DNA of 64,000 nucleotides from Candidatus Bipolaricaulota bacterium (GCA_025060395.1 JANXCC010000002.1:102234-166233), one strand, 5' to 3'. Counted from the stretch's first letter, positions 1,830 through 31,133 are shown. The notes: generated by a model from the sequence alone, not told the origin. A program made the numbers and translations.

Positions 1830-1951
1830 GAGGGGCGTTTTCCGTGCTTTCTGCGATGCAGAGCATCTGTCCCTTCTTGACGTCTCCGATGTCCCACCCG
1901 CAGAGGGGAGAAGCCCCTGACGCTGTGATCTCCATTACATAAGATAGTAAT

Positions 1952-2338: not shown

Positions 2339-2352
2339 AGGGGTGAGCATCG

Positions 2353-3258: not shown

Positions 3259-3272
3259 TAGAATAGCCGGGA

Positions 3273-4346: not shown

Positions 4347-4397
4347 CAGCCTTCCCCGCATAGCATAAGATAGAACTCAGCGCTCACAGGGAGGCTT

Positions 4398-5864: not shown

Positions 5865-5915
5865 GGGATTTGCCTTGAGGCCCCTGCAAGGAGTATTATC
5901 ACAGCAGGGGTCTCT

Positions 5916-7547
5916 ATGAGAGTTCTTGTGCTGTGCGGGCTGCTCTTGGTAGGAACGGGGGGCTGTGCCCCACCACCCAATCAGCCGCCTATCGCGGCGA
6001 TCACGGCCGCGCCCATCAGCGGCGGCGTGCCCTTGACGGTGCAGTTCGACGGTTCTGGATCGCGCGATCCCGACGGAAAAATTATTGAGTACTCCTGGGA
6101 TTTTGGCGATGGCACTACAGCTTTTGGAGCGAAAGTCTCGCATACTTACACGCAGGCCGGGCTCTACCCCGTCATTCTCACGGTTAAGGACGACCGCGGC
6201 TCGACCGCCGTCGCCACGGTCATCATCAAAGTCGGCAACCCGCCTCCTACAGCGACCTTTACCGCATCGGTGACTAATGGCTTTGCTCCGCTCACCGTTA
6301 CGTTTGACGCTTCAGCGTCGAGCGATCCGGCATCGCGCTGGGCGCCGCAGCGCATCGTGCGTCACGAGTGGGACTTCGGTGACGGCACGGGCGCTATCGG
6401 CTCGCAAGTCTCGCACACCTACACGCGCGCTGGCGTCTATACTGTTACCCTGCGGGTCTTTGACGAGGACGGCGCAAGCGACCGCGCGCAGCAGACTATC
6501 CGTGTCTTGGACTTCTCGTTCCCACTCTCGCTCCCTGTGGGGCTCGGCCCGACGGCATTAGCGGTGGGAGACTTCGACGCTAACGGGCTCGACGACATCG
6601 CTGTCGCCAACTTCGAGAGCAGATCTGTTACCGTGGTGCTGAGCCGCGACGCCGGGGATTTTCGCATTCAAACGCCGCTTCTACTCACGTATCGTCCGAC
6701 CTCCCTGGTTGGTGGCGATTTCAACCAGGACAGAAAGCTCGATCTGATCGTGACGAACTTCGACGAAGGGCGTCTGTCCCTCTTCCAGGGTGACGGCACA
6801 GGACAGCTTACAGCCGTGCGAGAGATCATTGTCGGCGCCGGGCCGTATGCGCTCATCGGAGAGGATTTCAACGGCGATCGGATCCTTGATATAGCCGTTG
6901 CCAACGCGACGCTCGGACGCGTGACGACGCTGCTAGGGGATGGCACAGGAGACTTCTCCAAGGCTCAGGAGATCACGGTGGGCGGTTGGCCTAGTGCCCT
7001 GGCTCCTGGGGATTTCGACGAAGACGATCGCCTGGATCTCGCCGTGGTGAACTTCTTCGACGATACTGTGACGGTTCTCTTGGGCAACGGCGATGGGACT
7101 TTTGACGCCTTGATGCCCTTTCCCGCAGGCAAGGAGCCAATCGGCATAGCTGAGGGCGATCTTAACGGTGACGGCTTTGCTGATCTCGCTATTGCCGCTT
7201 CGGAGGAGAACTCGTTGAAGCTCTTCTTCGGACAAGGGACGGGGCGCTTTCGCGAGGGGCCAACGCTCTTTGTCGGCCCGGAGCCCCGTGCCGTCGATTT
7301 GGCCGATCTCGATCGCGATGGCGCTCTCGATCTCATCGCGGCGAGCATCCAGAGCAACGAGCTGAAGATCGTTCTTGGCCGAGGCGACGGCTCTTTTGGG
7401 ATGAGCAAGATCTGGCCTGTAGGCGCCGGACCTATAGCGATTGCCACGGGGCGCTTTGTAAGAAGCGAATTTGAAGATATAGCTATCGCGCAGTTCATCA
7501 GCGGGCGCCTGGCTATTCTGCTCAACGAGATGGCACGCTCCCCTTAA
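5916..7547 (+). CDS. Lipoprotein with two PKD domains followed by a seven-bladed FG-GAP (integrin-alpha-like) beta-propeller.
   Basis: It has a signal peptide with a Cys lipobox-like site. Two PKD repeats carry the WDFGDG...HTY motif. Seven repeats of GDF[DN]xDGxxD[LI]A[VI]xN follow. Confidence 0.85.
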   Translation: MRVLVLCGLLLVGTGGCAPPPNQPPIAAITAAPISGGVPLTVQFDGSGSRDPDGKIIEYSWDFGDGTTAFGAKVSHTYTQAGLYPVILTVKDDRGSTAVATVIIKVGNPPPTATFTASVTNGFAPLTVTFDASASSDPASRWAPQRIVRHEWDFGDGTGAIGSQVSHTYTRAGVYTVTLRVFDEDGASDRAQQTIRVLDFSFPLSLPVGLGPTALAVGDFDANGLDDIAVANFESRSVTVVLSRDAGDFRIQTPLLLTYRPTSLVGGDFNQDRKLDLIVTNFDEGRLSLFQGDGTGQLTAVREIIVGAGPYALIGEDFNGDRILDIAVANATLGRVTTLLGDGTGDFSKAQEITVGGWPSALAPGDFDEDDRLDLAVVNFFDDTVTVLLGNGDGTFDALMPFPAGKEPIGIAEGDLNGDGFADLAIAASEENSLKLFFGQGTGRFREGPTLFVGPEPRAVDLADLDRDGALDLIAASIQSNELKIVLGRGDGSFGMSKIWPVGAGPIAIATGRFVRSEFEDIAIAQFISGRLAILLNEMARSP

Positions 7548-7592
7548 AGGGCTATTGCATCCAACGAAATTTTTCGCTATCGTAGGAGTACC

Positions 7593-9701: not shown

Positions 9702-9704
9702 ACT

Positions 9705-10523
9705 ATGACGATCCCAGAGCTTCAGCGGAAGGCCAAGGAGCTGCGGCGTATGGTCTTAGAGATGGTAGCGCAGGCGGGCTCGGGGCATCCTGGGGGAGCG
9801 CTCAGCTCGGCTGACCTGCTCACGGTGCTCTATTATAAATATCTGCGCGTGCGGCCGGAGGAGCCGCGCTGGCCTGAGCGTGATCGCTTCGTGCTCAGCA
9901 ATGGCCATGTCTGTCCCATACTCTATGCGATCTTGGCTGATCGGGGCTTCTTTCCCAAGGAAGAGCTCAAGCATCTCCGAAAGCTCGGCTCGATTCTTCA
10001 GGGCCATCCCAGCTTGGCGTTCAAGACCCCGGGGATAGAGCATTCGGGAGGCTCGTTGGGATTGGGGCTGTCGGTATCGGTGGGTATGGCGTTGGCGGCC
10101 AAGCTCGAGAGGAAAGACTATAAAATTTACTGTCTCATCAGCGACGGCGAATGCCAAGAGGGTCAGACGTGGGAGGCCGCGATGGCCGCTGCCCACTACC
10201 AATTAGACAATCTCTGTGCGATGCTCGACCGGAATTTTACCCAGATCGATGGGCGCACCGAAGAGATCATGAAGATCGAGCCCATCGCTGAGAGATGGCG
10301 CACGTTCGGCTGGAATACTCTCGAGATTGACGGACACAACTACGAGCAGATTATCTCAGCGTTCGAGCAGTTCTTAAAAAACCAGGGCACAGGGCGCCCG
10401 ACGATGATCGTCGCTCGGACTGTGATTGGAAAAGGCGTCTCGTTCATGGAAGGGGACTATCACTGGCATCACGGTGCGCCCACGCCCCAGCAGCTTGAGC
10501 AAGCTCTCACAGAGTTGGTTTAA
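9705..10523 (+). CDS. Transketolase N-terminal (thiamine-diphosphate-binding) subunit, lacking an adjacent C-terminal subunit.
   Basis: GSGHPGGALSSADLL, GHxCPILYA and ISDGECQEG are transketolase N-terminal hallmarks. It is 272 aa, which is split-subunit size. The next gene is convergent. Confidence 0.88.
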   Translation: MTIPELQRKAKELRRMVLEMVAQAGSGHPGGALSSADLLTVLYYKYLRVRPEEPRWPERDRFVLSNGHVCPILYAILADRGFFPKEELKHLRKLGSILQGHPSLAFKTPGIEHSGGSLGLGLSVSVGMALAAKLERKDYKIYCLISDGECQEGQTWEAAMAAAHYQLDNLCAMLDRNFTQIDGRTEEIMKIEPIAERWRTFGWNTLEIDGHNYEQIISAFEQFLKNQGTGRPTMIVARTVIGKGVSFMEGDYHWHHGAPTPQQLEQALTELV

Positions 10524-10524
10524 G

Positions 10525-11871
10525 TTATCTGCGGCTGATCATACAAACCCCTGGCCCTGTGATGATCTCAAAGCTTCCCGCAGTGTCTTGGACAGTTACG
10601 ATAGTATTGCGAAAACGTCCAAGTACCAATTCAGGGAATTCCCCGATGAGGATCACCCTTCCCGTCTCATTGTGCGCTTGGGTGCAGATGATCATCTCGG
10701 AGTCGTCGCCGGCATCGCCAGCCCGCACAATGAACGTATCGTTCCCGCCACCACCAATGAGAACATCTGAATCTAAGCCACCATCAATGATATCGTTGCC
10801 GGTGCCACCGTCGAGGGTATCATTGCCCTCGTTGCCCCGCAGCATATCGTTGCCAGAACCGCCGTACAGCTCGTCATCGTCCGCTCCACCAAGGAGAACA
10901 TCCCGGCCAAAGCCGCCTTGCAACAGGTCATCCCCCTTATTGCCCTCGAGATGATCGTTGCCAGTGCCCCCGTCAATGACGTCATTGTCATCCTCACCAT
11001 AGAGGGTGTCGTTCCCCGATTCGCCGTAGATGGTGTCATTACCTTTTCTCCCGTAGATAGTATCCCGGCCGGTAGTGCGCCAGCCGCCAAAACCGTCATC
11101 ACCGTAGATTTGGTCATCGTCATCACTGCCTATAATGAAGTCGTTTCCACACCGCGATGACGAACAGGCATTAGGCCCATCATCAGATACGCCGTTGCCG
11201 TCACCACGAATGATCGGTTCTTCGCATCTCTGAATGATATTGTCTTGCGAAGTTCCTTCACACCCCTCGGGGGGGAGAGTGGGGCGTGCCGTAAACGTGG
11301 CCGTGACGGACTTGTTGGCGTCCATAGTGACCGTGCAGGTGCCCCGACCACTGCAAGCTCCGCTCCAGCCTCTGAAAGTTGAGCCGGAGTCCGCAGTAGC
11401 TGTCAAAGTGACGGTAGTGGGAGGAGTAGTGGCAGCATAGCTCGCTGTGCACGCAGTGCCGCAATTGATCTTTCCGTCATTGCTGGTTACGGTGCCGCTG
11501 CCGGTGCCAGCTTTGGTCACGGTGAGAGTAAAGGCTCGCGTGAAAGTTGCGGTGACTGACTTGTTAGCATTCATAACGACCGTACAGGTAAGGGCTGTAC
11601 CGCTGCAGTCTCCGCCCCAACCCCCGAAGGTTGACCCTGGACTGGGTGTCGCCGTCAGCGTCACTGTGGTATTGAGGGAGAATTGGGCCGAGCAGGCGGT
11701 GCCACAGTTGATCCCCGCGGGGCTGCTGGTGACTGTGCCACTTCCTGTGCCGGTCTTCGTCACCGTCAGCGTAACGAGCACTTGAGAGACCACTGAGCTA
11801 GTGTTGAGCAAGAGAGCCAGTGCCGTACATCCAACCAGTACCCAGAGCCTCCTCCAATATCTAGCTGCCAT
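10525..11871 (-). CDS. Secreted calcium-binding protein with two divergent InlB-type B-repeats followed by RTX (hemolysin-type GGxGxDxUx) repeats.
   Basis: A signal peptide is present and the RBS is GGAGG. Two roughly 80-aa repeats (GSGTVTS..INCGTAC...TLTAT...GW.G.CSG) are followed by at least ten nonapeptide GxGNDxL/I repeats. Confidence 0.85.
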   Translation of the reverse strand: MAARYWRRLWVLVGCTALALLLNTSSVVSQVLVTLTVTKTGTGSGTVTSSPAGINCGTACSAQFSLNTTVTLTATPSPGSTFGGWGGDCSGTALTCTVVMNANKSVTATFTRAFTLTVTKAGTGSGTVTSNDGKINCGTACTASYAATTPPTTVTLTATADSGSTFRGWSGACSGRGTCTVTMDANKSVTATFTARPTLPPEGCEGTSQDNIIQRCEEPIIRGDGNGVSDDGPNACSSSRCGNDFIIGSDDDDQIYGDDGFGGWRTTGRDTIYGRKGNDTIYGESGNDTLYGEDDNDVIDGGTGNDHLEGNKGDDLLQGGFGRDVLLGGADDDELYGGSGNDMLRGNEGNDTLDGGTGNDIIDGGLDSDVLIGGGGNDTFIVRAGDAGDDSEMIICTQAHNETGRVILIGEFPELVLGRFRNTIVTVQDTAGSFEIITGPGVCMISRR

Positions 11872-12271
11872 AAGACCTCCTTCTCTGTGGAAGGCTGCTC
11901 TTCACTATGCAAAATTATAGTCAAACGCTCCAACTTTGTGAAGTCAGATCGCTCACGAAGCATTATATCGGCTGTGATCCCCTAGAACGGTAATACATAT
12001 CACCGTTAACGTTTTCTCCGACCACGCTCTCGCAAGGCGCGACGCACACGCCTCTTAAAGGCTGTTTAACTACCCCAACGACACACTCGCGCCCCGTTGG
12101 TCTGCATACAAATTAAATACTTAGTCTGAAAGTCTGGATGCGCCAAAAGCCCTGCGATGACCGTCGGCTCATAGCTGATGCCGATCCCCTGCGGTGAAGT
12201 GCAACGCCGTCTCGTTCTCGCGGGGATCGGCACTTGCTCAAGCTATCCGCTTTTGCTAAAATAAAAAGCGT

Positions 12272-13540
12272 ATGCACCTGACACGACGCGCGTTCCTTCG
12301 TGCGGCTGCTGGAACAATCTACACGCTGACCATAAGCTGGGCTGCGCAAGCACAGGCCCAGACAAGCGATTGGCCCATGTTCCGCCGCGATCTCTTCCGT
12401 ACGGGGCGAGCCGTCAAAACGAGCAAGATAACGCTTCCCAAGGAGCGCTGGAGCGCCTTCACGCGCGGCTTAGTCGAATCATCGGCAGCCGTAGGCGATA
12501 TCGATGGCGATAGCATTATAGAAGTCGTCGTCGGCTCGTATGATGGGGGACTCTATGCCTATCAAGGGCGCACGGGCATTCTCAAATGGCGCTATGAAAC
12601 AAAAGGCTGGGTCTACTCCTCCCCAGCGATCGCCGATGCCGACGGTGACGGACGCCTCGAAGTTGCCGTCGGTTCCCAAGACAAGAGCTTTGCGCTGGTG
12701 GACGGGCGCACCGGGCGACCCAAATGGTCTTTTCTCACCGGAGACGGCATTCTCTCTTCGCCCGCGATCGCTGACATCGACGGGGATGGAAGATCTGAAG
12801 TCGTTGTAGGATCGGAGCGCGTCTATGCGTTTGACGGGCGTACCGGCTCGGTGAGATGGAAGTTCTTACCCGAGTTTCCTGCGCGCTCCTCGCCCGCTAT
12901 CGCAGATATAGACGGCGACGGCAAACTCGAGATCGTTATCGGTTCGTTGGACGGGAGGCTCTACGCGCTGGACGGGCGCACGGGTGTGGCTCAGTGGGCC
13001 TTCGACACCGGTGGTCCTGTCGAGTCGTCCCCAGCGATTGGGGATCTCGATGGCGACGGCACACTCGAGGTCACGGTGGGCTCGAGCAAGCGCGGCGTCT
13101 TTTGTGTCGATGGGCGCAGGGGGCGACTCCGATGGTTCTTTGAGGCCAGCCGCGAGCGTATCCCCTCGTCCCCAGCAATTGGAGATCTCGACGGCGATGG
13201 GAAGCTCGAAGTCGCCATCGGAACTAACGATCATCGAGTGCTCTCCTTAGGAGGCTCAGATGGCAAGCTGAAATGGAGCTTTCTCACCAACGATCTTGTC
13301 GAGTCCTCCCCAGCGATCGCCGACATTGACGGCGATGGGAGGCTTGAAGTCTTGGTCGGCTCGCATGATGGCCATCTCTATTGTTTGGATGGGCGCACCG
13401 GGGCGCGCAAGTGGGCCTATCGTCCTAAGGCTGCCGCGCAGTTCTTCTCGTCGCCGACGCTCGCCGATCTTGACGGCGATGGGCTTTTAGAGATTATCAT
13501 CGGGAACAACAACAGCGGGCTTTATGTCCTAGGCGCCTGA
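12272..13540 (+). CDS. Tat-exported PQQ-like / FG-GAP beta-propeller repeat protein.
   Basis: It has a twin-arginine signal (RRAFLRAAAG). About eight repeats each carry G.L.A.DGRTG..KW plus IADIDGDG..E..VGS. Confidence 0.8.
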   Translation: MHLTRRAFLRAAAGTIYTLTISWAAQAQAQTSDWPMFRRDLFRTGRAVKTSKITLPKERWSAFTRGLVESSAAVGDIDGDSIIEVVVGSYDGGLYAYQGRTGILKWRYETKGWVYSSPAIADADGDGRLEVAVGSQDKSFALVDGRTGRPKWSFLTGDGILSSPAIADIDGDGRSEVVVGSERVYAFDGRTGSVRWKFLPEFPARSSPAIADIDGDGKLEIVIGSLDGRLYALDGRTGVAQWAFDTGGPVESSPAIGDLDGDGTLEVTVGSSKRGVFCVDGRRGRLRWFFEASRERIPSSPAIGDLDGDGKLEVAIGTNDHRVLSLGGSDGKLKWSFLTNDLVESSPAIADIDGDGRLEVLVGSHDGHLYCLDGRTGARKWAYRPKAAAQFFSSPTLADLDGDGLLEIIIGNNNSGLYVLGA

Positions 13541-21536: not shown

Positions 21537-22142
21537 ATGAGAGATCAGATTACAATCCCGATAGTGATTGACCGTACCGGCCAGTATGAGCGTGTCTACG
21601 ATATCTACTCGCGCTTGCTTGAGGATCGGATCATCTTCTTACAGGGAGTGATCACGGACTATGTGGCCAATCTCGTCGTGGCTCAGATGCTCTTCCTCGA
21701 ATCGAAGGACCCGGAGAAAGATATTAATCTCTATATCAATACGCCGGGGGGAAGCACGACGGCGGGACTAGCCATATATGATACAATGCAATACGTGCGG
21801 TGCGATGTGCGCACGATCTGTGTTGGGTCGGCCTTCTCTATGGGGGCAGTGCTCTTAGCGGCAGGGACGAAGGGGAAGCGCTTCTCCTTGCCTAATGCGC
21901 GCATTATGATCCATCAACCGTGGGGTGGGGTGCAAGGCCAAGCCGCGGATATCAAGATTCACGCTGAAGAGATCTTGAGGATGCGCGATCAACTCAATAG
22001 AATCCTAGCAGAGCACACGGGGCAGCCCCTCGAGCGCATCGAGCGCGATACTGATAGAGATTTCTTCATGAGCCCCGAGGACGCTAAGAACTATCACATT
22101 ATCGACGAAGTGATCAAGACGCGCCGCGGGGCGAGGTTCTGA
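21537..22142 (+). CDS. clpP: ATP-dependent Clp protease proteolytic subunit.
   Basis: Classic ClpP motifs are present (INSPGG, catalytic Ser in GxAxSMG, MIHQP). Confidence 0.95.
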
Positions 22143-22144
22143 TT

Positions 22145-22699
22145 CTACGGGCAGGTTGGGGGAATGATCGGCACGGCAAAGCGTGTCGAGACCCCCAGTA
22201 CGCCCTCAGAGGTTCCATCGTTATTTAAGTCCACGGAGAGCATCATAAACCACGGCCCCCGTATATCTCCCGTCGACAAGAAGAGTATTGTGCCAAACTG
22301 CTTCCCGCCTTGAGCCCGTCCGTTGAGTGTGACTTCAAAATCTGCTAGGACGTGAATCCGGATCTCGACAAACGGTGTTGGGCCGCTGCAGAAGACCGTC
22401 GTTCGAGCGGTAACCAAGCGGGGATACCCATTGATCGAATAGACGGGATCGACACCAGCCTCGAATTTGCCGTTCCCATCGGCGTCAACGACGTATTGCG
22501 CGGTAAAAAAGTCGGTCTTATGAGGAAGGTTGAAGAGTTCGAGTTGCCATTGGCCGAGGGCGGCTTGAAGATCTGAGGATGTTATATCGCCTTGGGCTGA
22601 GAGAACTCGGACGATCTCGTGGGTGGAGAGGGTCTGGGCCTGGCCACTCATCACGACCGTGACGACGCTGAGCACTAAGGCTATAAATATACGTCGCAT
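22145..22699 (-). CDS. Secreted hypothetical protein.
   Basis: It has a signal peptide and no recognisable domain. Confidence 0.55.
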   Translation of the reverse strand: MRRIFIALVLSVVTVVMSGQAQTLSTHEIVRVLSAQGDITSSDLQAALGQWQLELFNLPHKTDFFTAQYVVDADGNGKFEAGVDPVYSINGYPRLVTARTTVFCSGPTPFVEIRIHVLADFEVTLNGRAQGGKQFGTILFLSTGDIRGPWFMMLSVDLNNDGTSEGVLGVSTRFAVPIIPPTCP

Positions 22700-22754
22700 G
22701 TGATACCTCCTTGACTGATATGCTACCCTGGTACGGGTGCGTTGTCAAATTCTA

Positions 22755-22793
22755 TAAAAAACAACCGGCCCTGGGCGTGCTGCCCAGGGCCGG
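22755..22793 (-). terminator. Rho-independent terminator of the three-gene outer-membrane operon.
   Basis: A 12-bp GC stem (ccggccctgggc / gcccagggccgg) is followed on the minus strand by UUGUUUUUUAUA. Confidence 0.7.
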
Positions 22794-22816
22794 GCCAATT
22801 CCGTCCAGGACCTTCA

Positions 22817-24313
22817 CTAGAAGGTGAAGGTGATGGAGATCATCTGCGCCTCGAGCCGGTTCTCGGTCAAGAGCGTGGCGCTCTTGAGCAAGGCAGCGCC
22901 CATCTTCCAGCTCAGCTCGATGGTCGCGCCATAGAAGCCGGTGATGAGGCTTGTCAGGCGGATGCCGATGCTGATCGACATATCGCCGACGGTGGCCGAC
23001 AGCAACAGGTCGTGATAGAAGAGCGCGGTCGTGCAGTTGAGCTCTTCATTGCAGAACTGGATGTCGCTGACGACCTTCATCCCCGGCGGATCGAACGTCG
23101 AGATGACGCGGCTCCAGTAGAGGGTGAACGCCCGGGTGATGTCCGGCCAGATGTACCCTATAATCGTCATCGAGATATCCCCCACCTTCAGGCTCGTGAC
23201 GAAGACGTCTGAGCTGAGGGTGAGATCAGGCCCGATGATATTGAGGGTATTGGTCACCTCTAGCCGGAACGGGTCGAGGCGGAAGGACTGGGTCAGCTCG
23301 ACGAAGCGCAATCCCGCGGGACCTTCGGCGAACTCGAACTCCAGGCGTGCACCCCAGGTGATGCCAGCCAGCTTGAGGTTGCGGATGAAGATCTTCTCCT
23401 CGTAGAAGGTGAACGGGGCATCGGGGAGCATGCCACCGCGCACAATCTGGAGAGGCTTACACTCCGCAAAGCACTCAAGACCTTGGCGGGCGCCGATCCA
23501 GCTCTCAGCGCGGATTGTGATGCCGCTGACGGTCTGGCCCTCGACGCTGCTGACGACACCCATGCGCCAGCTGGGGACAGCCGCCGAGCCGACGTTGCCA
23601 AACAAGCCGCGCAGCCCGATGGTCAACCCCGCTAGCGACAGGGCCAAGTCCACGACCTTCTTGCGGAAGGTCAGCGGCTGACCCAGCGGGTTAGAGGCCT
23701 GCGCCTCCATGATGGTGGCCAGGTACCAATTGCGCAGCGCCGGGTGCAAGTAGAGGACGTTAGTCAGGTAGAGATCGACGCCCTCAATCAGCAAGTAGAG
23801 GTAGTGCTCGCCGGCGTCTACTGGGGTCCCGCAGTTCCAGTTAAATCCGGCAGGCGGGACGATAGTGGGGTTGGCCAGCGCTACGCAGTACGCCGGCAAT
23901 CCTAGGCTATCGCGCACCGCGCGGATCTCCAGGATATTAGGCGCGAAGATGAACTGCGAGCGCACGACCAGAGCACCAATCGTCCCGGTGAAGACGAACG
24001 ACTGATACTCCAGCCCGCGGAAGGTGAAGACCGACTGGCTGGTGATATCCACGCCGCTGATGGACAGCGTCAAGATGAGGTCCAGCTCCAGCTTGACATA
24101 GATCTTGTCGATCTTGCACGGCGCGAGTGCTGGACCGGGATCGCAGTCATAGTACCCTGCAGGAGCGAAGACGATATCTAACGTCGCGGAACCGCTGACC
24201 GGAGCGGCATGAGCGGGGAGACTCCAGCCTGCCGCGGTCACTGCCAGTGCCGCTAGGATTACCATGAGTCTTCTAAACATTGACAGAACCTCCTTTTTCT
24301 CGGTTTTTCTCAC
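22817..24313 (-). CDS. Paralog 1 of a secreted putative outer-membrane beta-barrel protein family.
   Basis: It has an MFRRL... signal peptide and shared motifs with its two neighbours (QPLTFRKK, GQTVSGI, GARQGLECF.ECKP, EEKIF). The C-terminus is ...ISITFTF, ending in Phe. Confidence 0.8.
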   Translation of the reverse strand: MRKTEKKEVLSMFRRLMVILAALAVTAAGWSLPAHAAPVSGSATLDIVFAPAGYYDCDPGPALAPCKIDKIYVKLELDLILTLSISGVDITSQSVFTFRGLEYQSFVFTGTIGALVVRSQFIFAPNILEIRAVRDSLGLPAYCVALANPTIVPPAGFNWNCGTPVDAGEHYLYLLIEGVDLYLTNVLYLHPALRNWYLATIMEAQASNPLGQPLTFRKKVVDLALSLAGLTIGLRGLFGNVGSAAVPSWRMGVVSSVEGQTVSGITIRAESWIGARQGLECFAECKPLQIVRGGMLPDAPFTFYEEKIFIRNLKLAGITWGARLEFEFAEGPAGLRFVELTQSFRLDPFRLEVTNTLNIIGPDLTLSSDVFVTSLKVGDISMTIIGYIWPDITRAFTLYWSRVISTFDPPGMKVVSDIQFCNEELNCTTALFYHDLLLSATVGDMSISIGIRLTSLITGFYGATIELSWKMGAALLKSATLLTENRLEAQMISITFTF

Positions 24314-24322
24314 GTGCGCACC

Positions 24323-26026
24323 TTAGAACTTGATCTCGATGCTGAACTGTTGCGCCGCCAGCTCGATGCGGGTGCCATCAAAGGCATCCACGCCAAAGCC
24401 AAAGGGTAAGTTCCACGTGTTACGGGCCGCCTGGAGGTTCTGGAAGATCGTCCAGCTTGTGAAGGTCACCGGGCCAATCTTCCAGCTGGCCTTCACAGAG
24501 AACAGGTACAGGTCCTTCAGCAGGCTCCCGTACGTGGCCGCGAACAAGTAGACCGTCAGGTCACCGACCTCAAAGAGCAGGTCGTAGTCGACCTCAAGGA
24601 ACGGGTTGGGCGTACCAGGAGCTAGGAAGTTACCCTGGTAGCACCGCCCTGGGACGCCACCAAACTCATTGGGGTCACAGGTGACCGCGACGATCGAGGC
24701 CTTGGCGCCCGGCGCGTCGAACTCAGCGTAGAATATCCTAAACAGCGACTCCATCGCTCCGATAGCGGTTGGGCGGAAGTCCCACTGGATGAAACCGCTC
24801 GCTTCGCCGAAGGAGACGCTGACTCGGATCTGATCGCGGATGAAGCTCAAGCCTGGGCCAAACCGCGCGATGTTGAGCACTGTGATCCCCAGCGGGGTGA
24901 TGCGCGGCGTGGTCGTTATGACCGACAGGAAGGTCGGCTGGAGCGAGCTCGCGGCAACTCCGGCCAGCTGCATCTCGATGAGGATCGAGTTGGTGAGCCC
25001 GGCAAACCTCAACCCGGTGATGTAGAGCTTCTCCTCCTCGGGCGAGAAGCCAGGGACGACGATACCGCCAGTGGCCGGATAGGGCACGATGAGAGCCGCC
25101 CCTTGGGTGCCCAGGCGCTGATTGGGCTTGCACTCGCCGAAGCACTCAAAGCCCTGGCGGGCGCCGATCCAGGTCTCGCTGCGCACGTTGATGCCGCTGA
25201 CGGTCTGGCCCTCGAGGATCAGGACCGTGCCGGTGACAAAGCTCGGCGTAGCCGAGGTGCCGAAGTTGGCAAAGAGCGCGCGCAGCCCTAGCGTCAACCC
25301 GGCAATGCTCAAGGTCACCTCAGCCGCCTTCTTGCGGAAGGTCAGAGGCTGATCGAGCATCGAGCCAGAGACATTACCGGGCACTACCGGGGGATGCCAA
25401 GCATCGTACAGGCCGTCGGCCCAGCGGCCAATGACCAGATTGCCAATAGGGCCAGAGGAGATCTCTGCGTAGCTCAAGAAGAACAGCGCGCCCCAGGGTA
25501 AGTAGCCGTAGATCGGGTCGATGATACCCGCCGAGGTCCCATAGATACAGTTGTTGAGGTTTGGAGACCCAGAAGCCACCCCGTAGTCATGGGGTGCAGA
25601 CCGCAGGAGGCAGTAGGAGCGGGTACCGGCGCCGGTGCGAGCCTCCTCAAACTCCAAGATGTTTGGAGCAAAGACCAGGGCCGTCTGGAAGACCATCGCA
25701 CCGACCGTCGCCTTGACAAAGAAGATCTGGGTCTCGATGCCCTTGAACGTGAACGAGGTAGAGCTGGTCAGCTCAAGGCCGCTGATCGACATCGTCAACA
25801 ACAGATCGGCCTCGAACTTGACCGAGATCCGGTCAATCTTGTTGATCAGATCCTCAGTGCAGATGATATCCCCCAAAGGCCCATCAACGTAACAAGACAG
25901 CTCTGGGTGAAAGACGATGTCGAAGGTGAAGCTGCCCGTGATGGGAGCAGCGGCTGCCGTCCAGGAGAGTGCTCCAGCTAGGAACAACGCTAGCGCACTT
26001 GCTAGAACTGTGATTCTTCTAAACAT
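24323..26026 (-). CDS. Paralog 2 of a secreted putative outer-membrane beta-barrel protein family.
   Basis: It shares the N-terminus, internal motifs and the conserved leader/RBS with its neighbours. The C-terminus is ...SIEIKF. Confidence 0.8.
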   Translation of the reverse strand: MFRRITVLASALALFLAGALSWTAAAAPITGSFTFDIVFHPELSCYVDGPLGDIICTEDLINKIDRISVKFEADLLLTMSISGLELTSSTSFTFKGIETQIFFVKATVGAMVFQTALVFAPNILEFEEARTGAGTRSYCLLRSAPHDYGVASGSPNLNNCIYGTSAGIIDPIYGYLPWGALFFLSYAEISSGPIGNLVIGRWADGLYDAWHPPVVPGNVSGSMLDQPLTFRKKAAEVTLSIAGLTLGLRALFANFGTSATPSFVTGTVLILEGQTVSGINVRSETWIGARQGFECFGECKPNQRLGTQGAALIVPYPATGGIVVPGFSPEEEKLYITGLRFAGLTNSILIEMQLAGVAASSLQPTFLSVITTTPRITPLGITVLNIARFGPGLSFIRDQIRVSVSFGEASGFIQWDFRPTAIGAMESLFRIFYAEFDAPGAKASIVAVTCDPNEFGGVPGRCYQGNFLAPGTPNPFLEVDYDLLFEVGDLTVYLFAATYGSLLKDLYLFSVKASWKIGPVTFTSWTIFQNLQAARNTWNLPFGFGVDAFDGTRIELAAQQFSIEIKF

Positions 26027-26064
26027 TGACTGAACCTCCTTTTTCTGGTTTTAAGACCCGTCCC

Positions 26065-27648
26065 TTAGAACTTGGTGCTCAGGCTGACCCCAATGCCACC
26101 GACTATATCGGCTAGGATCACGGCCGAGAAGGTCACAGCCACCGGCTCGAACGCAAAACCGATCTCGACGTCCAGCTCCTTGAAGGTGCCCAGGAGACCC
26201 CCATCGAAGATCACTAGGGTGGCGATGCTCACCGGACCGACAGCGCCGGTCAGGCTCAGGCGATGCTCGACCACGGGCGGGATCAGCGGGCCACCACCCC
26301 AGAGCGGGCTGCAGTAGACCGGGTCGGTGCAGAAGGTGATGTCGCTGGTCACCTTCAGGCCAGCTGGATCAAACGAGGAGATGACCTGACTGAGAGCCGG
26401 CTGACCGAAGGACCACTGGCCGTTGTTGCGCCAGACGAGGAAGGCCACGATGGAGATATCGCCAGCCTTCAGCTCCAACCGCGTGATATTGCTGATCAGG
26501 TCGAAGTTGCCGTTCCAGTTCCAGGTCGCCTGGACGTTGAGCCGCCACGGGGCCAGGACATAGGTCTGGACCAGCTGCATGAAGCACAACGGGCTGGTGA
26601 CGTCCTTGTTCTCGACCGCATCGGGGTCATAGGGCCAGAACCAGCCGTCGTTGTCGTCATCGACCTGATCGATGGTGCACTGGCGCAGATCGAAGTGGAA
26701 CTCGGCGCGGAAGTCATGGCGCACGCCGGCAATCACGAGGTTAGTGAGGAAGATCTTCTCCTCCTCATAGTTATTGACTCCACCGCCGGTGAGCGCCTGG
26801 TTGAAGAAGCGCTCCAGAGGCTTGCACTCGCCAAAGCACTCCAACCCCTGCTTAGCGCCCAACCACAGCTCGCCGCGCACGCCCACGCCGCTGACCGTCT
26901 TGCCCTCCGCCGCCAGGACTAGCCCGCTGCGCAGCGTGTAGCCGGTCGCAGTCAGGCTCACGTTGGCAAAGAGCGCCTTGACGTTGAGGACCAAGCCGGC
27001 GATGTTGAGGCTCAGGTCGGCGATCTTCTTGCGGAAGCGGATAATATTGTTCAGGGCGTTGGTGGGTTGGATCCAGCGAGCCAGGATGAGGTTCTGGGCA
27101 ATCGGATGGATCCGGTTGCGGAAGATCTCCCAGAAGGCGACAGTTCCGAAGACCGGGTCGCTAATGGTACCGTTGATTCGAGGGGTCGCTACCGCTGAGT
27201 AGAGGGTGCAGACCGCCGGGTTAGCGGCGGGGAACTGCGGCAGCGAGACCGAGCCGAAAGGCGCGCCCTCAAACTGCATCAAGCACCAGCGCAACGACCC
27301 ATACTGATCCCGCGTCTCCTCGAACTCGAAGAAGGTCGGGGAGAAGATGATCGTATCCTTGATGGTCAGAGCACCAACCGTGGCGCTGATCACGAACGAT
27401 TGGAATTCAACGCCAAGGAAGGTGAAGATCGTTGTGCTGGTGATGTCCAGGCCGCTGATGGAGAAGGTCAGGATCAAGTCGGCCTCAAACTTCACATCGA
27501 TGAGGTCGACCTTGTTGATCTCGGGACCCTGAGGATGGAAGACAAAGTCGAGAGAAAAGCTTCCGCTGATTGGAGCAGCGTTCGCTCCCCACGAAAGCGC
27601 CCCCACAACGGCGAGCGCACAGGTTAGAGCGAGTAATCTTCTAAACAT
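26065..27648 (-). CDS. Paralog 3 of a secreted putative outer-membrane beta-barrel protein family, the first gene of the operon.
   Basis: It shares the same family features as its two neighbours. The C-terminus is ...LSTKF. A roughly 125-nt leader lies downstream of a consensus promoter. Confidence 0.8.
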   Translation of the reverse strand: MFRRLLALTCALAVVGALSWGANAAPISGSFSLDFVFHPQGPEINKVDLIDVKFEADLILTFSISGLDITSTTIFTFLGVEFQSFVISATVGALTIKDTIIFSPTFFEFEETRDQYGSLRWCLMQFEGAPFGSVSLPQFPAANPAVCTLYSAVATPRINGTISDPVFGTVAFWEIFRNRIHPIAQNLILARWIQPTNALNNIIRFRKKIADLSLNIAGLVLNVKALFANVSLTATGYTLRSGLVLAAEGKTVSGVGVRGELWLGAKQGLECFGECKPLERFFNQALTGGGVNNYEEEKIFLTNLVIAGVRHDFRAEFHFDLRQCTIDQVDDDNDGWFWPYDPDAVENKDVTSPLCFMQLVQTYVLAPWRLNVQATWNWNGNFDLISNITRLELKAGDISIVAFLVWRNNGQWSFGQPALSQVISSFDPAGLKVTSDITFCTDPVYCSPLWGGGPLIPPVVEHRLSLTGAVGPVSIATLVIFDGGLLGTFKELDVEIGFAFEPVAVTFSAVILADIVGGIGVSLSTKF

Positions 27649-27779
27649 GTACAGAAACCTCCTTTTTTACTCGGTTTTTGGCGTACGCACGAACGACTCT
27701 CTCTCCGTGGTGTGTTGTTGTTGGCGTGTTCCCCCAGGTGAAGATCACCTCCTTATGAGGATCGTTTTTTGGTGACTGT

Positions 27780-27808
27780 ATTATAACACACACTCACCTC
27801 GCTGTCAA
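27780..27808 (-). promoter_or_regulatory. Perfect consensus sigma70 promoter (TTGACA-17-TATAAT) driving the three paralog genes.
   Basis: Read on the minus strand, the -35 is at 27803..27808 and the -10 at 27780..27785. Confidence 0.6.
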
Positions 27809-27814
27809 GACCCC

Positions 27815-28471
27815 CTATGTTAATAGAGCCACGATGACCGCAACGACGCCGGCGAAGACCGCAAACCCTGTGATAAGTAGGGCGTTATTCATCTGACTTT
27901 GTAGTTTCTCGAGCTCTGCGGGGGCAACTCCTCCTCCCGAGGCCCGCGCCTGCTGGAGCTCGGCCTTGAGCGTCTGGACTTGGGCTTGCAAAGAGGCGAT
28001 CTGCGCCTCGCTCTGGGCGAGCTTCTCCTGGAGGGCGGCGACCGCCGCGCTGCTGTCGGCACTGGGCCGACTCTTGAGCGTAGTGACCTCGTGCTCGAGC
28101 TTGTCGAGCGCCTGGACGCGCTCAGAGAGCTTGAAGATCAGGTCTTGGAGGATCTTCAGATCTGCTGGCTGGATCTTCTCCGGATCGTTCTGGAGGTACC
28201 GAATCGCTCGCGCGATGAGGACGGCTGCATCATAGCGAGTCAGGGCCTTACCCCCTTGAAACTCCCCGGTGGGCAGCCCAGTGATGATCCCGCGCTCGAC
28301 CAAGAACTTCAGATCGCTTGCCGCATAGTGATCCGATGGGACGTCGACGAAGATCGAGCCGCGCTGGGCGGTGGGCTTGGAGGGCCGCTTCGGCTGACCA
28401 TCGGCTAAAGCTACCAGCCCCACACTCAGCACCATCAACCCGATAACAACGACCTTGAGACCTCTCATCAT
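27815..28471 (-). CDS. Ompalpha-like envelope tether with signal peptide, SLH domain, coiled coil and C-terminal transmembrane anchor.
   Basis: The SLH motif is FVDVPSDHYAASDLKFLVERGIITG...ALTRYDAAVLIARA. A heptad-rich roughly 90-aa Ala/Gln/Leu segment follows. The C-terminus ITGFAVFAGVVAVIVALLT is a hydrophobic helix. Confidence 0.85.
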   Translation of the reverse strand: MMRGLKVVVIGLMVLSVGLVALADGQPKRPSKPTAQRGSIFVDVPSDHYAASDLKFLVERGIITGLPTGEFQGGKALTRYDAAVLIARAIRYLQNDPEKIQPADLKILQDLIFKLSERVQALDKLEHEVTTLKSRPSADSSAAVAALQEKLAQSEAQIASLQAQVQTLKAELQQARASGGGVAPAELEKLQSQMNNALLITGFAVFAGVVAVIVALLT

Positions 28472-28531
28472 CTACCTCCCGAGTGTGCGTGTTCAACCTC
28501 CTCGGGGTTTTTGGCCCTGCCTCGGGAGCGT

Positions 28532-28561
28532 ATTGTAGGTTACGTGTCCAGCGGCTGTCAA
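28532..28561 (-). promoter_or_regulatory. Sigma70-type promoter for the SLH tether gene, TTGACA-18-TACAAT.
   Basis: The hexamers were read on the minus strand. The RBS GGGAGG follows before the ATG at 28471. Confidence 0.5.
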
Positions 28562-28620
28562 GTCCGCATGTCCGCTCCCCGCGTCATCGGTGGCCCCTCC
28601 CTACCTTCCACGATTCCCCC

Positions 28621-28649
28621 TTGACAGCAGGAAGCCCGTCCCGTATAAT
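28621..28649 (+). promoter_or_regulatory. Perfect consensus sigma70 promoter (TTGACA-17-TATAAT) for clpC.
   Basis: TTGACA is at 28621..28626 and TATAAT at 28644..28649. Confidence 0.6.
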
Positions 28650-28676
28650 TTAGCAGAGAAATCTATAGTCTGCTAA
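28650..28676 (+). promoter_or_regulatory. CIRCE-like 9-N9-9 inverted repeat (TTAGCAGAG-N9-GTCTGCTAA) overlapping the clpC transcription start. It is a candidate HrcA-type operator.
   Basis: The outer TTAGCA...TGCTAA half-sites match the CIRCE consensus TTAGCACTC-N9-GAGTGCTAA. The inner triplets differ. Confidence 0.4.
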
Positions 28677-28697
28677 TTTTAAGGGAGTGAGCATACG

Positions 28698-31133
28698 ATG
28701 ATAAGATTCGACCGCTTCACCGAGAAAGCCCAGGAGGTCTTTCGCGACTCCGCAGAGCTTTTAGAGAGATATAAGCACAACCAACTCGACGTCGAACATA
28801 TCTTCTATACGCTGGCGGCTAAGGAGGGCGTCGGCCGAGAATTACTCAAAGAGATGGGCGTCCCCATCCCCGGCCTGCTCAAAGACCTAGAGCTTCTCTT
28901 GACCGAAAAGCCCAGCGTCTCTACGACCTTTGTCGGCCAGCAGATCTATATCACGCCCAGATTAGAAATGCTCGTCAAGGCCGCTCAAGTCGAAGCTGAT
29001 CGATTAAAAGACGAGTTTATAGGGATCGAGCATCTCTTAATAGCTATTAGCCAGGACCCCAACACAGCTCTCAGAAGGGTCTTATATAAATACGATATAA
29101 CCCCGGAGCGAGTCTACCACGCCCTGTCGCGGGTGCGCGGGGCCCAGCGCGTGACGGATAGAGAAGCCGAGAGTCGCTACAAAGCCCTAGAACGATTCTC
29201 GATCAACCTGACAGCGCTGGCTCGTGAAGGCAAGCTCGACCCAGTTATCGGACGCTCGCGAGAGATTCGTCGTGCCGTCCAGATTCTCTCTCGCAGAAAG
29301 AAGAACAACCCGGTCTTTATCGGGGAGCCGGGCGTGGGCAAGACGGCGATCGTTGAGGGCTTAGCCCAAAGGATCGTCGCCGGCGATGTCCCCGATACCC
29401 TCAAGAATAAAGAACTGATTCAGTTGGACTTGGCAGCGCTCGTGGCGGGCACCAAGTTTCGTGGAGAGTTTGAAGAGAGACTGAAAGCCGTCATCAACGA
29501 GATCGAGAGCACTAAGGGCAAGATTATTGTGTTTATCGACGAGCTGCACACGGTCGTAGGCGCCGGGGCGGCCGAAGGCGCCATCGATGCTTCTAATATC
29601 TTAAAGCCCGTCTTAGCTCGCGGGACGTTCCAAGTGATCGGCGCGACGACTTTGGACGAATATAGAGAGCATATCGAGAAAGATCCGGCGCTCGAGCGGC
29701 GCTTCCAGAAAGTTCTCATCGAGGAGCCTTCGGTCGATGAGACTATCGCGATCTTAGAAGGGATGCGCCCGAAGCTCGAAGCCCATCATAACGTCAAGAT
29801 TACGGACGACGCCTTGCGCGCGGCCGCGCGGCTCTCAGCGCGCTATATCTCTGACAGATTCTTGCCCGACAAAGCCATCGATCTCTTAGACGAAGCGGCG
29901 GCCAAGCTGAGAGTCGATCGGACGTTCGCCCCCGAACTCCAAGAGATCACCGAGAAGATTAAACTATTAGAAGGGCGCCTCAAGAACGCCGACCCCAAGA
30001 CGGCCAAGCAGCTTCAGAAAGAGCTAGAGAAGCTTCAAGCCGAGAAGACCAAGCGCGAGGCCGAGCACGCCCAGCGAGTCCAGCGCGAACCCATCGTCAC
30101 GGATCGCGAGATCGCCGAGACGGTCGCGCTCTGGACGGGCATACCCGTCGAACAGATGTTTGAAGAGGAACGCGAGCGCTTGGCCAAGCTCGAAGAGCGA
30201 CTCCATCAGCGGGTTGTTGACCAGAATGACGCTGTCAAGGCCGTCGCCCAAGCCGTGCGTCGCGCTCGCGCCGGGCTGAAAGACCCCAAGCGCCCTGCGG
30301 GCAGCTTCTTGTTCTTAGGGCCCACGGGCGTGGGCAAGACCGAGCTCTCGAAAGCATTGGCCGAAGCGCTCTTTGGCGACGAAAACGCCCTGCTCAGATT
30401 CGATATGTCTGAGTTCATGGAGCCGCACTCAGTAGCCAAGCTGATCGGTTCTCCTCCTGGCTATGTGGGGTACGAGGAGGGCGGACAGCTCACCGAAGCC
30501 GTGCGCAGAAAGCCCTACAGAGTCATTCTCTTTGACGAGATCGAGAAGGCTCATCGCGACGTCTTTAACATTCTCTTGCAAGTCTTAGATGACGGCCGGC
30601 TCACCGACAGCCACGGGCGCACCGTTGACTTCAAGAATACTATCATTCTGATGACGAGCAACTTGGGGAGCGAGCAGATCGTCTCCAAGACGACCCAATT
30701 GGGCTTTGTCAGCGAGAAGAGCGACGCTCACGAGCGATCTTATCAAGAGATCCGGGAGCGCGTCTTGAGCGAAGTGAAGAGATTCTTCCGGCCCGAATTC
30801 TTAAATAGACTGGACGGGATCATTGTCTTCCGTCCCCTCTCTAGAGAGAATCTCTTGGACATTGTCACCCTGAAGTTAGAAGCGCTGCGCAAGAAGCTCG
30901 CCGAGAGGGAGATCGCTCTTGAAGTCACAGAGAGCGCCAAGGCGCTCTTGGCTGAAAAAGGCTATGACCCGCTCTACGGGGCACGCCCCCTACAGCGCGT
31001 CATCCAAGAAGAGATCGAGAACGAACTCGCGATGCAGATCGTCGAGAACAAGCTCAAAGAAGGAGACACAGTGCGCGTCGACGCGCGCGAGGGGAAGTTT
31101 ATGATCGAAGTCACCGTCGGGGCAACAGTTTGA
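28698..31133 (+). CDS. clpC: Clp ATPase ClpC (AAA+ class III, two nucleotide-binding domains).
   Basis: It has N-terminal Clp_N repeats, two Walker A motifs (GEPGVGKT and GPTGVGKT), and a short middle domain. The length is 811 aa. An LGF loop is consistent with ClpP docking. Confidence 0.88.

Follow-up and report, generated by a model that had tools for sequence, protein, structure and literature searches.

A putative split tether and barrel locus of the outer envelope in Candidatus Bipolaricaulota

Results

Gene Content and Conservation of the Locus

The locus was found in a MAG of Candidatus Bipolaricaulota (Acetothermia), of the Acetothermia/OP1 lineage, and was analyzed within a 64-kb stretch of DNA, referred to here as the window. 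The four open reading frames that a preliminary description of this DNA had listed, one for an SLH protein and three for paralogs of one another, are all present on the minus strand where it had placed them (Table 1). The gene order clpB / SLH-B1-B2-B3-184 aa / clpP-tig, in which B1 to B3 are the three paralogs, occurs either whole or truncated by a contig end in 17 distinct related loci. Across these loci the barrels are 47–85% identical, and the SLH tether gene adjoins the barrel genes in every related locus that covers the region. The triplication of the barrel gene is ancient. MAGs labelled Fraserbacteria also contain the present Bipolaricaulota locus.

Table 1. Features of the tether and barrel locus, with positions counted from the first letter of the window.
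Feature	Position	Strand	Description
Tether promoter-like site	28532..28561	-	TTGACA-18-TACAAT; 11/12 in the consensus scan; ~60 nt upstream of the start codon
SLH tether gene	27815..28471	-	218 aa; signal peptide, SLH, coiled coil, C-terminal hydrophobic helix
Barrel promoter	27780..27808	-	Sigma-70-type consensus TTGACA-17-TG-TATAAT; 12/12, extended -10 TG
Barrel leader	27649..27779	-	~125 nt; upstream Shine-Dalgarno-like site and initiation block
Barrel paralog 1	26065..27648	-	527 aa; signal peptide and predicted ~24-strand outer-membrane beta-barrel, Phe end
Barrel paralog 2	24323..26026	-	567 aa; positional orthologs in related loci; common ribosome-binding context
Barrel paralog 3	22817..24280	-	487 aa from ATG 24280; positional orthologs in related loci
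Intrinsic-terminator-like hairpin	22755..22793	-	12 bp, 11 GC, then TTGTTTTTTA
Promoter-like site of 184-aa gene	22748..22720	-	Own site
Downstream 184-aa secreted protein gene	22145..22699	-	Same place after paralog 3 in relatives

Wherever a related locus extends far enough, the 184-aa gene comes after paralog 3. Its product has 33 homologs (67–98% identical) with two invariant Cys residues, and an AF2 model of it is unreliable (pLDDT 57). Codon bias in this gene is the lowest among 31 genes compared. Synteny suggests that the 184-aa protein belongs to the tether/barrel system.

The SLH Tether Protein

The SLH protein has the Ompalpha-type architecture attributed to it in the preliminary description, as judged from Pfam and phmmer searches and from reading the sequence. 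A hydrophobic, signal-like N-terminus ends in VALA|DG, and translation may actually begin at the second ATG (28468). It is followed by a single SLH domain (Pfam SLH, residues 41–83, 27.4 bits vs a cutoff of 20.8) and by a region at residues ~100–195 that is matched by many coiled-coil families. The coiled coil amounts to ~80–95 residues, is interrupted into three segments and is far shorter than the Ompalpha rod. A C-terminal hydrophobic helix occupies residues ~197–218; the final 21 residues (LLITGFAVFAGVVAVIVALLT) are uncharged, and the protein stops at VALLT with no basic residues beyond the helix.

Searched against the PDB with phmmer, the tether matches Sap (3e-14), D. radiodurans SlpA (7zgx; residues 11–170, E 2e-12, spanning the SLH domain and the coiled coil) and V. 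parvula OmpM1 (8bym; E 5.6e-5). The 7zgx match is also recorded as covering residues 14–175, at E 2e-12. Every related locus that extends this far has a tether ortholog, of 219–234 aa, in the corresponding position.

Sequence Characteristics of the Three Paralogs

The three paralogs are 40–42% identical over their full length (paralog 2 vs paralog 1, 40%; paralog 3 vs paralog 1, 42%). The common MFRR start and terminal Phe noted earlier are present in all of them, the C-termini reading SLSTKF, SIEIKF and SITFTF. The internal blocks described as common to all three are more variable. Paralogs 2 and 3 contain QPLTFRKK and GQTVSGI unchanged, and paralog 1 has IIRFRKK and GKTVSGV in their place; EEKIF occurs in paralogs 1 and 3 and is EEKLY in paralog 2. 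Within the proposed block GARQGLECFxECKP, the core ECFGECKP (ECFAECKP in paralog 3) is found in all three and the flanking residues vary. Lengths of 527 and 567 aa stand; the third paralog, previously given as 498 aa from GTG 24313, is most likely 487 aa and begins at ATG 24280, since only this ATG has the AAAAAGGAGGTT-N6 context of the other two.

In keeping with the earlier statement that the family has no nameable domain, the paralogs gave no Pfam, NCBIfam or PDB sequence match. Plug and TonB_dep_Rec had no match at E <= 1, and no TonB-box, usher or LptD family match was obtained. An exhaustive search with a family profile gave 149 cluster representatives, and Phe is the C-terminal residue in 74 of the 93 full-length family representatives.

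Predicted Structure of the Barrels

As the preliminary description had anticipated, in AF2 models the paralogs are large transmembrane beta-barrels and not soluble sandwich or propeller proteins. The barrel model is confident (pLDDT 85, pTM 0.81) and consists of one closed antiparallel sheet of ~24 strands, the first of which begins directly after the signal peptide. The strands have a hydrophobic face (mean Kyte-Doolittle +1.9) and a polar face (-0.5). On one side of the barrel all 11 connections are 2–5 residues long, and on the other side they reach up to 80 residues. Long conserved loops (124–203 and 264–293) may occlude the barrel, so that the label “porin” is not established; C271, C275 and C440 are invariant Cys residues in the long conserved loops. 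All structural neighbors of the model are membrane barrels, and the low TM-scores against ushers and LptD (0.28–0.42) identify a generic large barrel only. With 24 strands, such a barrel far exceeds a general porin in size. By geometric estimate it would be ~5–6 nm across, close to the ~6.25 nm spacing of the hexagonal lattice that cryo-EM revealed in the toga-like outer sheath of the first cultured Bipolaricaulota (10.1101/2025.11.21.689855).

Promoters, Leader and Terminator

The perfect TTGACA-17-TATAAT promoter reported ahead of the paralogs is indeed present at 27808..27780 (minus strand), with a TG extension. Such a match is not unique to the barrel operon, since the promoter of the neighboring clpB matches the consensus perfectly as well; five promoter-like sites were observed in the region vs 1.7 expected. 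Both hexamers of the barrel promoter are kept in the closest relatives (L003, L004, L010 and L014), and the -10 is also found in L008, L009 and L041. At the barrel-promoter position, loci further removed carry GC-rich hairpin sequences instead. Tether and barrels are each served by a promoter of their own, and in some relatives a hairpin lies between them, so the two do not form a single operon in the strict sense.

The conserved ribosome-binding contexts and the strong terminator of the preliminary description were likewise recovered: AAAAAGGAGG precedes all three barrel genes, in contexts that are strong and near-identical, and a 12-bp hairpin with 11 GC pairs and a T-run lies at 22793..22765. 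The barrel leader carries an upstream Shine-Dalgarno-like sequence, AAGGAGGTGATC, at 27754..27743, and GGAGGTG, ~95 nt ahead of the ATG, is unchanged in 14/14 aligned loci. A translation-initiation block of ~33 nt (27678..27646) is near-invariant among relatives. Its last 25 nt (AAAAAGGAGGTTTCTGTACATG and the three bases that precede it) are identical in 14/14 loci, and 12/14 share all 33 nt, L013 and L032 being shorter at the 5′ end. The leader yielded no Rfam match and no covarying structure, and might act as an mRNA stabilizer or a standby site. Codon bias in the window is strongest in the three barrel genes, which hold ranks 1–3 among 31 window genes for both C-ending codons and GC3.

Discussion

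Proposed Role of the Locus

We consider that this is probably the main outer-envelope structural locus, encoding a two-part system of the Thermotoga Ompalpha/Ompbeta type that links the outer membrane to the wall. The tether would trimerize through its coiled coil, and by analogy with SlpA and OmpM its three SLH domains would bind a pyruvylated secondary cell-wall polymer on the peptidoglycan. The coiled coil would form a stalk crossing the periplasm, roughly 12 nm long if estimated from ~80 coiled-coil residues, and the C-terminal helix may insert into, or beside, the outer layer. This layer would be built largely from the three barrels, which the expression proxies suggest to be abundant. 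The barrels would be inserted by BAM via the C-terminal Phe signal, and could act as diffusion pores while also providing the protein scaffold for a toga-like sheath. A search for BamA found none among window ORFs of at least 150 aa or in the neighboring loci scanned; support for it comes from the literature on the phylum (Bipolaricaulis Ran1, PMC6092417). Similarly, CsaB (PS_pyruv_trans) had no match in window ORFs of at least 150 aa, nor within 10 kb in the related loci, and is reported for the phylum (10.1101/2021.05.31.446380).

Other readings of the paralogs deserve consideration. They could be soluble, secreted beta-rich proteins (sandwich or propeller) or S-layer subunits that are not embedded in a membrane, as might be supposed from the failure to find a family assignment and from the use of the term S-layer for the lattice of the cultured relative (10.1101/2025.11.21.689855). 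This is extremely improbable given a confident model with a closed antiparallel sheet whose neighbors are all membrane barrels, strands with an alternating hydrophobic face, and proteins that end in Phe. It is unlikely, to a lesser degree, that the barrels are specialized translocons or anchors, comparable to ushers, LptD or plugged transporters, with the tether merely a neighboring envelope gene. The conserved long loops with their invariant Cys residues could make a plug or a binding site, more distant members of the family in Bipolaricaulota adjoin giant proteins that combine DUF11 repeats with a CHU_C-type C-terminal sorting-like domain, and elsewhere, too, one distant homolog has a DUF11 neighbor. 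The paralogs of the window, however, have no such cargo gene alongside, lack matches to the Plug, TonB-box, usher and LptD families, and show only the low TM-scores to ushers and LptD noted above (0.28–0.42); their high-expression signatures and invariant pairing with the SLH tether also argue against a specialized translocon.

As for the tether, a cleaved signal peptide combined with a C-terminal hydrophobic helix is textbook inner-membrane topology, and the protein could be held in the cytoplasmic membrane by a stop-transfer helix, linking the wall to the inner membrane independently of the barrels. Its own promoter, and the hairpin that parts it from the barrel genes in several relatives, would fit such an arrangement. 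We nevertheless regard it as quite improbable, because the helix lacks trailing basic residues at the VALLT end, Thermotoga Ompalpha, which has the same architecture, is enriched in the toga and co-purifies with it (PMC3387000, PMC10160955), the first 160 residues of the tether can be aligned with the periplasmic stalk of SlpA/OmpM, proteins that have their far end in the outer membrane, and the barrels are adjacent in every related locus that includes the region.

Within the preferred reading of a two-part link between outer membrane and wall, a more far-reaching proposal may be made, which we hold to be doubtful. B1, B2 and B3, taken to be co-expressed, might form a fixed hetero-oligomer that tiles into the ~6.25 nm hexagonal lattice on the toga, in which case the reported “S-layer” would be a lattice of membrane barrels hung from the wall by a mini-Ompalpha. 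If so, the wider unnamed superfamily could constitute a new class of outer-membrane proteins, and its DUF11-paired members might anchor or export giant proteins with a type-IX-like C-terminal domain. To our knowledge, a type IX secretion system has not been reported in Bipolaricaulota.

Relationship to Known Tether and Barrel Systems

One of the closest known systems is the Ompalpha (OmpA1, TM0477)/Ompbeta (OmpB, TM0476) pair of T. maritima, in which the tether gene likewise lies immediately upstream of a gene in the same orientation that encodes a Sec-exported barrel with a terminal Phe. The two lineages are related, and a toga-like sheath is known in the present one as well; in Thermotoga the toga consists of arrayed beta-barrel trimers together with several Ompalpha proteins (PMC10160955). 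The two systems differ in scale. Whereas Ompalpha has ~400 aa and a rod of ~50 nm, the present tether has 218 aa and a predicted stalk of ~12 nm, and in place of the single 417-aa Ompbeta of Thermotoga there are three barrels of about 500–570 aa with ~24 strands. The search revealed no sequence link to Ompbeta: none of the 148 retrieved profile hits carries the Thermotogales OmpB/analog C-termini of PMC3387000, a comparison covering 10 of 12 of them and judged by C-termini rather than by the whole of TM0476. This agrees with Sexton et al., according to whom homologs of the Thermotogae barrels are lacking outside that phylum.

The OmpM/SlpA proteins (V. parvula OmpM1, D. radiodurans SlpA and T. 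thermophilus Slp) resemble the tether in having an SLH domain and a coiled-coil stalk that are homologous in sequence, and in their presumed role, the attachment of the outer membrane to a wall polymer. In those proteins stalk and barrel are fused into one chain, whereas the present stalk terminates in a hydrophobic helix and separate genes encode the barrels. A single-chain architecture is ruled out for the present locus, as the SLH protein ends in its helix at residue 218 and the barrels are separate ORFs with their own signal peptides.

In fold and size class, with 22–26 antiparallel transmembrane strands, the barrels are comparable to FhuA-type TonB-dependent transporters, PapC/FimD ushers and LptD, although sequence identity to these large barrels of Proteobacteria is only 7–10% and TM-scores are low. 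The paralogs lack the N-terminal plug and TonB box of TonB-dependent transporters: there is no Plug/TonB_dep_Rec match at E <= 1, and in the model the first strand comes right after the signal peptide.

Split pairs of the Ompalpha/Ompbeta type have been reported bioinformatically in Bipolaricaulota and Fraserbacteria by Witwinowski et al. (10.1101/2021.05.31.446380). Their pairs (for example, MBC7098427.1/MBC7098428.1 and HHM70416.1/HHM70417.1) come from the same phylum and likewise place an SLH protein beside a predicted barrel. In their Bipolaricaulota example CsaB is two genes from the SLH protein, whereas here clpB is upstream and there is no CsaB within 10 kb; the differing placement of CsaB suggests that theirs may be another locus. 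The separation of tether and barrel is thus already on record for these groups, and separate adjacent genes are classical in Thermotoga (PMC3387000). The barrel family itself remains unnamed, and the features particular to this locus are the mini-tether, this family of ~24-strand barrels and its ancient triplication.

Organization of the locus

Five co-oriented genes occupy 22145..28561 of the reverse strand, encoding an SLH protein (the tether), three barrel paralogs (B1, B2 and B3) and a secreted 184-aa protein. The preliminary description had reported the SLH tether, the three Phe-ending paralogs, a promoter and a terminator-like hairpin, and all of these are confirmed. Two details require adjustment. 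The barrel-operon promoter does match the consensus perfectly, but clpB has such a promoter too, so a perfect match is by itself nothing special in this genome. Similarly, the third paralog had been read as 498 aa; an ORF of this length does begin at an upstream GTG, but the ATG at 24280 is the better start, since only this codon has the AAAAAGGAGGTT-N6 context common to B1 and B2.

Features of the window and, where a locus handle (L0xx) is given, of loci from other genomes
Feature	Position	Strand	Detail
Tether gene	27815..28471	-	218 aa
B1 gene	26065..27648	-	527 aa
B2 gene	24323..26026	-	567 aa
B3 gene	22817..24280	-	487 aa from ATG at 24280
184-aa secreted protein gene	22145..22699	-	downstream of B3
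Barrel-operon promoter	27808..27780	-	TTGACA-17-TATAAT, extended -10 TG; consensus scan
TTGACA-18-TACAAT	upstream of tether gene		consensus scan
12-bp hairpin and T-run	22793..22765	-	consensus scan
clpB promoter	28621..28649	+	perfect TTGACA-17-TATAAT; clpB divergently transcribed
B1 initiation block	27646..27678	-	...AAAACCGAGTAAAAAAGGAGGTTTCTGTACATG
Upstream SD-like element	27754..27743	-	AAGGAGGTGATC
Surface-type protein gene cluster	93..13540
Subtilase gene	7593..9701		ends ANGVYLYVLEIVQDGRVIERKLGKWVVLE
357-aa ORF	3273..4346	+	ends ...GTLKVSYSLKI
Barrel and giant protein	L022 2215..9533
Barrel and giant protein	L025 1873..6452
Barrel and giant protein	L026 7782..14476
Barrel and giant protein	L027 3703..8848
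Barrel and giant protein	L029 7785..12343
Barrel and giant protein	L033 7782..14851
Barrel and giant protein	L035 224..6107		giant upstream of barrel
IS605 OrfB/TnpB-type gene	L037 19934..21058
P0207 and DUF11/CLIPPER protein	L042 10001..12664
Contig-edge family members	L043 1..2340; L044 1..2234; L045 1..1947		partial ORF at contig edge

The tether

The N-terminus of the tether is hydrophobic. Residues 41–83 match the Pfam SLH domain (27.4 bits, cutoff 20.8), residues ~100–195 match many coiled-coil families, and the last 21 residues, LLITGFAVFAGVVAVIVALLT, are uncharged. A PEP-CTERM or LPXTG-type sorting signal at this C-terminus was ruled out, as there is neither such a motif nor a basic tail. 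In a phmmer search against PDB sequences, residues 14–175 aligned with residues 11–170 of D. radiodurans SlpA, comprising the SLH domain and coiled-coil stalk (E = 2e-12); B. anthracis Sap (3e-14) and V. parvula OmpM1 (5.6e-5) were also matched. By these alignments, the tether is the “SLH plus stalk” module that forms the N-terminus of OmpM/SlpA superfamily proteins. In OmpM and SlpA, however, a barrel continues after the stalk, whereas the tether ends in a hydrophobic helix, which is the architecture of Thermotoga Ompalpha. The coiled coil comprises ~80 residues in three segments, for which we estimate a stalk of roughly 12 nm, compared with ~50 nm for Ompalpha (PMC10160955).

The barrel paralogs

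B1, B2 and B3 are 40–42% identical to one another over their full length. Each starts with MFRR, has an A-x-A-type cleavage site followed by AP(I/V)(S/T)GS, and ends in Phe; B1 is 100% identical to the hypothetical protein MCS7197522.1 from a Candidatus Bipolaricaulota MAG. The preliminary description could name no domain in these proteins, and indeed none of the three has a match in Pfam or NCBIfam, nor did a 68-sequence profile of the family match any PDB entry by sequence.

An AlphaFold2 model of B1, built on the 68-sequence alignment, is confident (pLDDT 85.2, pTM 0.81) and is nearly all long antiparallel hairpins, with 23 clear strands and one short one in the DSSP string, or about 24. 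Connections on one side are all 2–5 residues long and those on the other range from 2 to 80, and alternate strand positions, averaged over the family, have hydrophobicities of +1.9 and -0.5. Such a pattern typifies transmembrane barrels, in which the turns are periplasmic and the loops external. In a Foldseek search with the B1 model, the top-ranked structures are the ushers PapC and FimD and LptD, at low TM-scores (0.28–0.42); ushers and LptD have 24 and 26 strands, respectively. We regard the predicted barrel fold class as secure, with no specific solved relative. Two long B1 loops may fold into the lumen of the modeled barrel; the loop at residues 124–203 contains helices, and that at 264–293 carries a conserved ...ECFGECKP... 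with invariant cysteines. Barrels of this size may or may not be open pores.

Leader sequence and expression

The SLH-to-B1 intergenic regions of 14 orthologous loci were aligned. The last 25 nt of the B1 initiation block are identical in all 14 and the full 33 nt in 12, the block being shorter at its 5′ end in L013 and L032. Also invariant in all 14 is a GGAGGTG ~95 nt before the B1 ATG, which in the window forms part of an element fully complementary to the 16S 3′ end. The consensus barrel promoter is kept only in closer relatives. An upstream ORF starting at the SD-like element was ruled out, there being no start codon at a workable distance. No Rfam family matched in 22000..29000, and RNAalifold detected no covarying fold across the leader (covariation term 0.08). 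SD-like stabilizers exist at the 5′ ends of Gram-positive mRNAs and, by analogy, the upstream element may be a ribosome-binding mRNA stabilizer or a standby site.

Among the 31 window genes, those for B1–B3 rank 1–3 in codon bias (C-ending two-fold codons 0.74–0.75, GC3 0.79–0.83), the tether gene falls in the middle range, and the 184-aa gene comes last. This ranking, a proxy only, is in line with abundant barrels and an accessory 184-aa protein of low abundance. Despite having the strongest bias, all three barrel genes open with ATG TTT AGA AGA, and in B1 and B3 these two AGA are the sole AGR codons in the gene; this A/U-rich start looks to be under selection.

Conservation and the wider family

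Scanning one genome per species gave 34 loci, all in MAGs labeled Bipolaricaulota, Acetothermia, Fraserbacteria or “uncultured Thermotogae.” Seventeen distinct related loci keep the order divergent clpB, SLH protein, B1, B2, B3, 182–202-aa protein and convergent clpP-tig, either complete or cut short where a contig ends, with ortholog identities of 54–77% (B1), 52–75% (B2) and 47–85% (B3). The presence of one positional ortholog of each paralog per locus indicates that the triplication is older than the divergence of these lineages and that the three are distinct rather than redundant copies. The MAG of the window has at least a fourth, more distant paralog elsewhere (P0068, partial).

An exhaustive profile search of 1.84 billion cluster representatives identified 149 proteins at E ≤ 1e-3. 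Phe is the final residue in 74 of the 93 full-length family proteins, and in a subfamily of ~400–470 aa the homology extends from end to end (hhalign probability 99.9%, E 2.5e-34). Distant relatives include one cluster labeled Candidatus Acetothermia. Ten of the 12 published C-termini of Thermotogales OmpB orthologs and analogs (PMC3387000) were compared with the 148 retrieved family matches, none of which carries any of the ten, in agreement with the published lack of homologs of Thermotogae barrels in other phyla (PMC10160955). This is indirect evidence that the family has no detectable homology to Ompbeta, as judged through its published C-termini.

Contigs of 0.38–3.2 Mb (L043, L044 and L045) start a short way upstream of a distant family member and carry a partial ORF at that edge, and four family members lie on the same 3.2-Mb contig. 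Tandem paralogs may be breaking the assemblies at these edges.

Neighboring and associated genes

The 184-aa protein gene is found downstream of B3 in every related locus reaching that far. Its 33 homologs are 67–98% identical, with two invariant Cys, two Asp-rich DxDxNG/DxNxDG-like motifs and a C-terminal PIIPPxCP. The protein has no family match, and AlphaFold2 models it poorly (pLDDT 57).

In seven Bipolaricaulota loci, a distant family member (34–42% identical to B3) directly adjoins a gene for a giant secreted protein of roughly 1050–1880 aa. The giant lies downstream of the barrel in six of these, all with the conserved C-terminus VA[KR]G[VI]YLY[VI]V...QKL[IV][IV][KR]; the upstream giant of L035 ends in ...SRLQKLVILR. 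In L026 the giant carries a CHU_C “type IX secretion signal” domain (36 bits, cutoff 27) along with eight DUF11/CLIPPER repeats, and the L035 giant is similar. Anchoring or export of such giants is a role that this pairing suggests for some of the barrel family. In L042, a 223-kb metagenomic contig, a DUF11/CLIPPER protein is likewise next to a very distant homolog, P0207 (433 aa), which is encoded downstream of a Bmp-type ABC uptake system, so the pairing may reach beyond this lineage. A comparison of PfkB for L042 gave 24% identity, too low to place this contig.

The window also contains clustered genes for secreted proteins of surface type, among them beta-helix, PKD-repeat, PKD plus FG-GAP, S8 subtilase, RTX/InlB-B-repeat and FG-GAP/propeller proteins. 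The subtilase C-terminus resembles that of the giant DUF11 proteins by eye; its last 99 aa have no Pfam match. The 357-aa ORF, within this cluster, has a signal peptide and no family match except a faint one to the PelB C-terminal barrel (E 0.006), and may encode another small outer-membrane barrel. In one Acetothermia relative (L037), an IS605 OrfB/TnpB-type gene with a Cas12f1-like TNB domain lies between panB and an AsnC-type regulator; it is absent from the window.

Proposed function and alternatives

The analysis shows the domain architectures, predicted barrel fold, synteny, promoter, ribosome-binding site, terminator and codon bias. The overall interpretation of the preliminary description, an Ompalpha-like tether with separate barrels, is supported. 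The tether would trimerize, its SLH domains would bind a pyruvylated wall polymer, its stalk would span about 12 nm, and its terminal helix would sit in the outer layer. BAM would insert B1–B3 through their Phe-terminated last strand, and the three barrels would form most of the sheath and provide its diffusion pores.

We rate three other possibilities lower. B1–B3 could be a specialized translocon or anchor, a role given some support by the distant relatives paired with giant DUF11 proteins; the codon bias of the window copies fits abundant barrels. The tether could be anchored in the inner membrane, against which speaks its sharing the architecture of Ompalpha, a toga component. Finally, B1–B3 could be non-membrane proteins. 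A soluble sandwich or propeller had been named as the outcome that would count against barrels, and the confident model with its usher and LptD neighbors is neither.

Comparison with known envelope systems

In Thermotoga, Ompalpha (SLH, coiled coil and TM) and Ompbeta (a Phe-ending barrel) are encoded adjacently and are both components of the toga (PMC3387000), a barrel-trimer array with several Ompalpha proteins and several barrels, described as a “bipartite OM-tethering system”; Thermotogae barrels, apart from BamA and the ABC-permease barrel, are stated to lack homologs in other phyla (PMC10160955). The present locus indicates that the “split OmpM” design can employ a barrel family with no detectable sequence relation to Ompbeta, which bears on whether the split had a single origin or involved barrel swapping. 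Bipolaricaulota and Thermotogota are both deep branches that figure in the debate on outer-membrane origin and loss.

A simple diderm envelope was inferred for Ca. Bipolaricaulis Ran1, which has a BamA-like gene and no LPS genes (PMC6092417); BamA was not found among window ORFs ≥ 150 aa or some neighbors in related loci. In J31, the first cultured member of the phylum, a toga-like sheath and an outer lipid layer are present, and the surface bears a hexagonal lattice of 6.25-nm spacing (10.1101/2025.11.21.689855). SLH, porin, barrel, Omp and BamA go unmentioned in that preprint. The mini-tether, the three conserved, probably highly expressed ~24-strand barrels and the conserved 184-aa partner are candidates for the lattice proteins.

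By screening SLH proteins for neighboring barrels, Witwinowski et al. described a split system in Bipolaricaulota and Fraserbacteria, with accession pairs whose barrels include MBC7098428.1 and HHM70417.1 (10.1101/2021.05.31.446380). In their Bipolaricaulota system CsaB adjoins, whereas none was found within 10 kb of the present locus or of related loci, or among window ORFs ≥ 150 aa. The window system is of a kind already published for this phylum and will not surprise specialists. What is particular to this locus is the mini-tether, the unnamed family of ~24-strand barrels with no detectable sequence link to Ompbeta, the conserved triplication and the conserved 184-aa partner.
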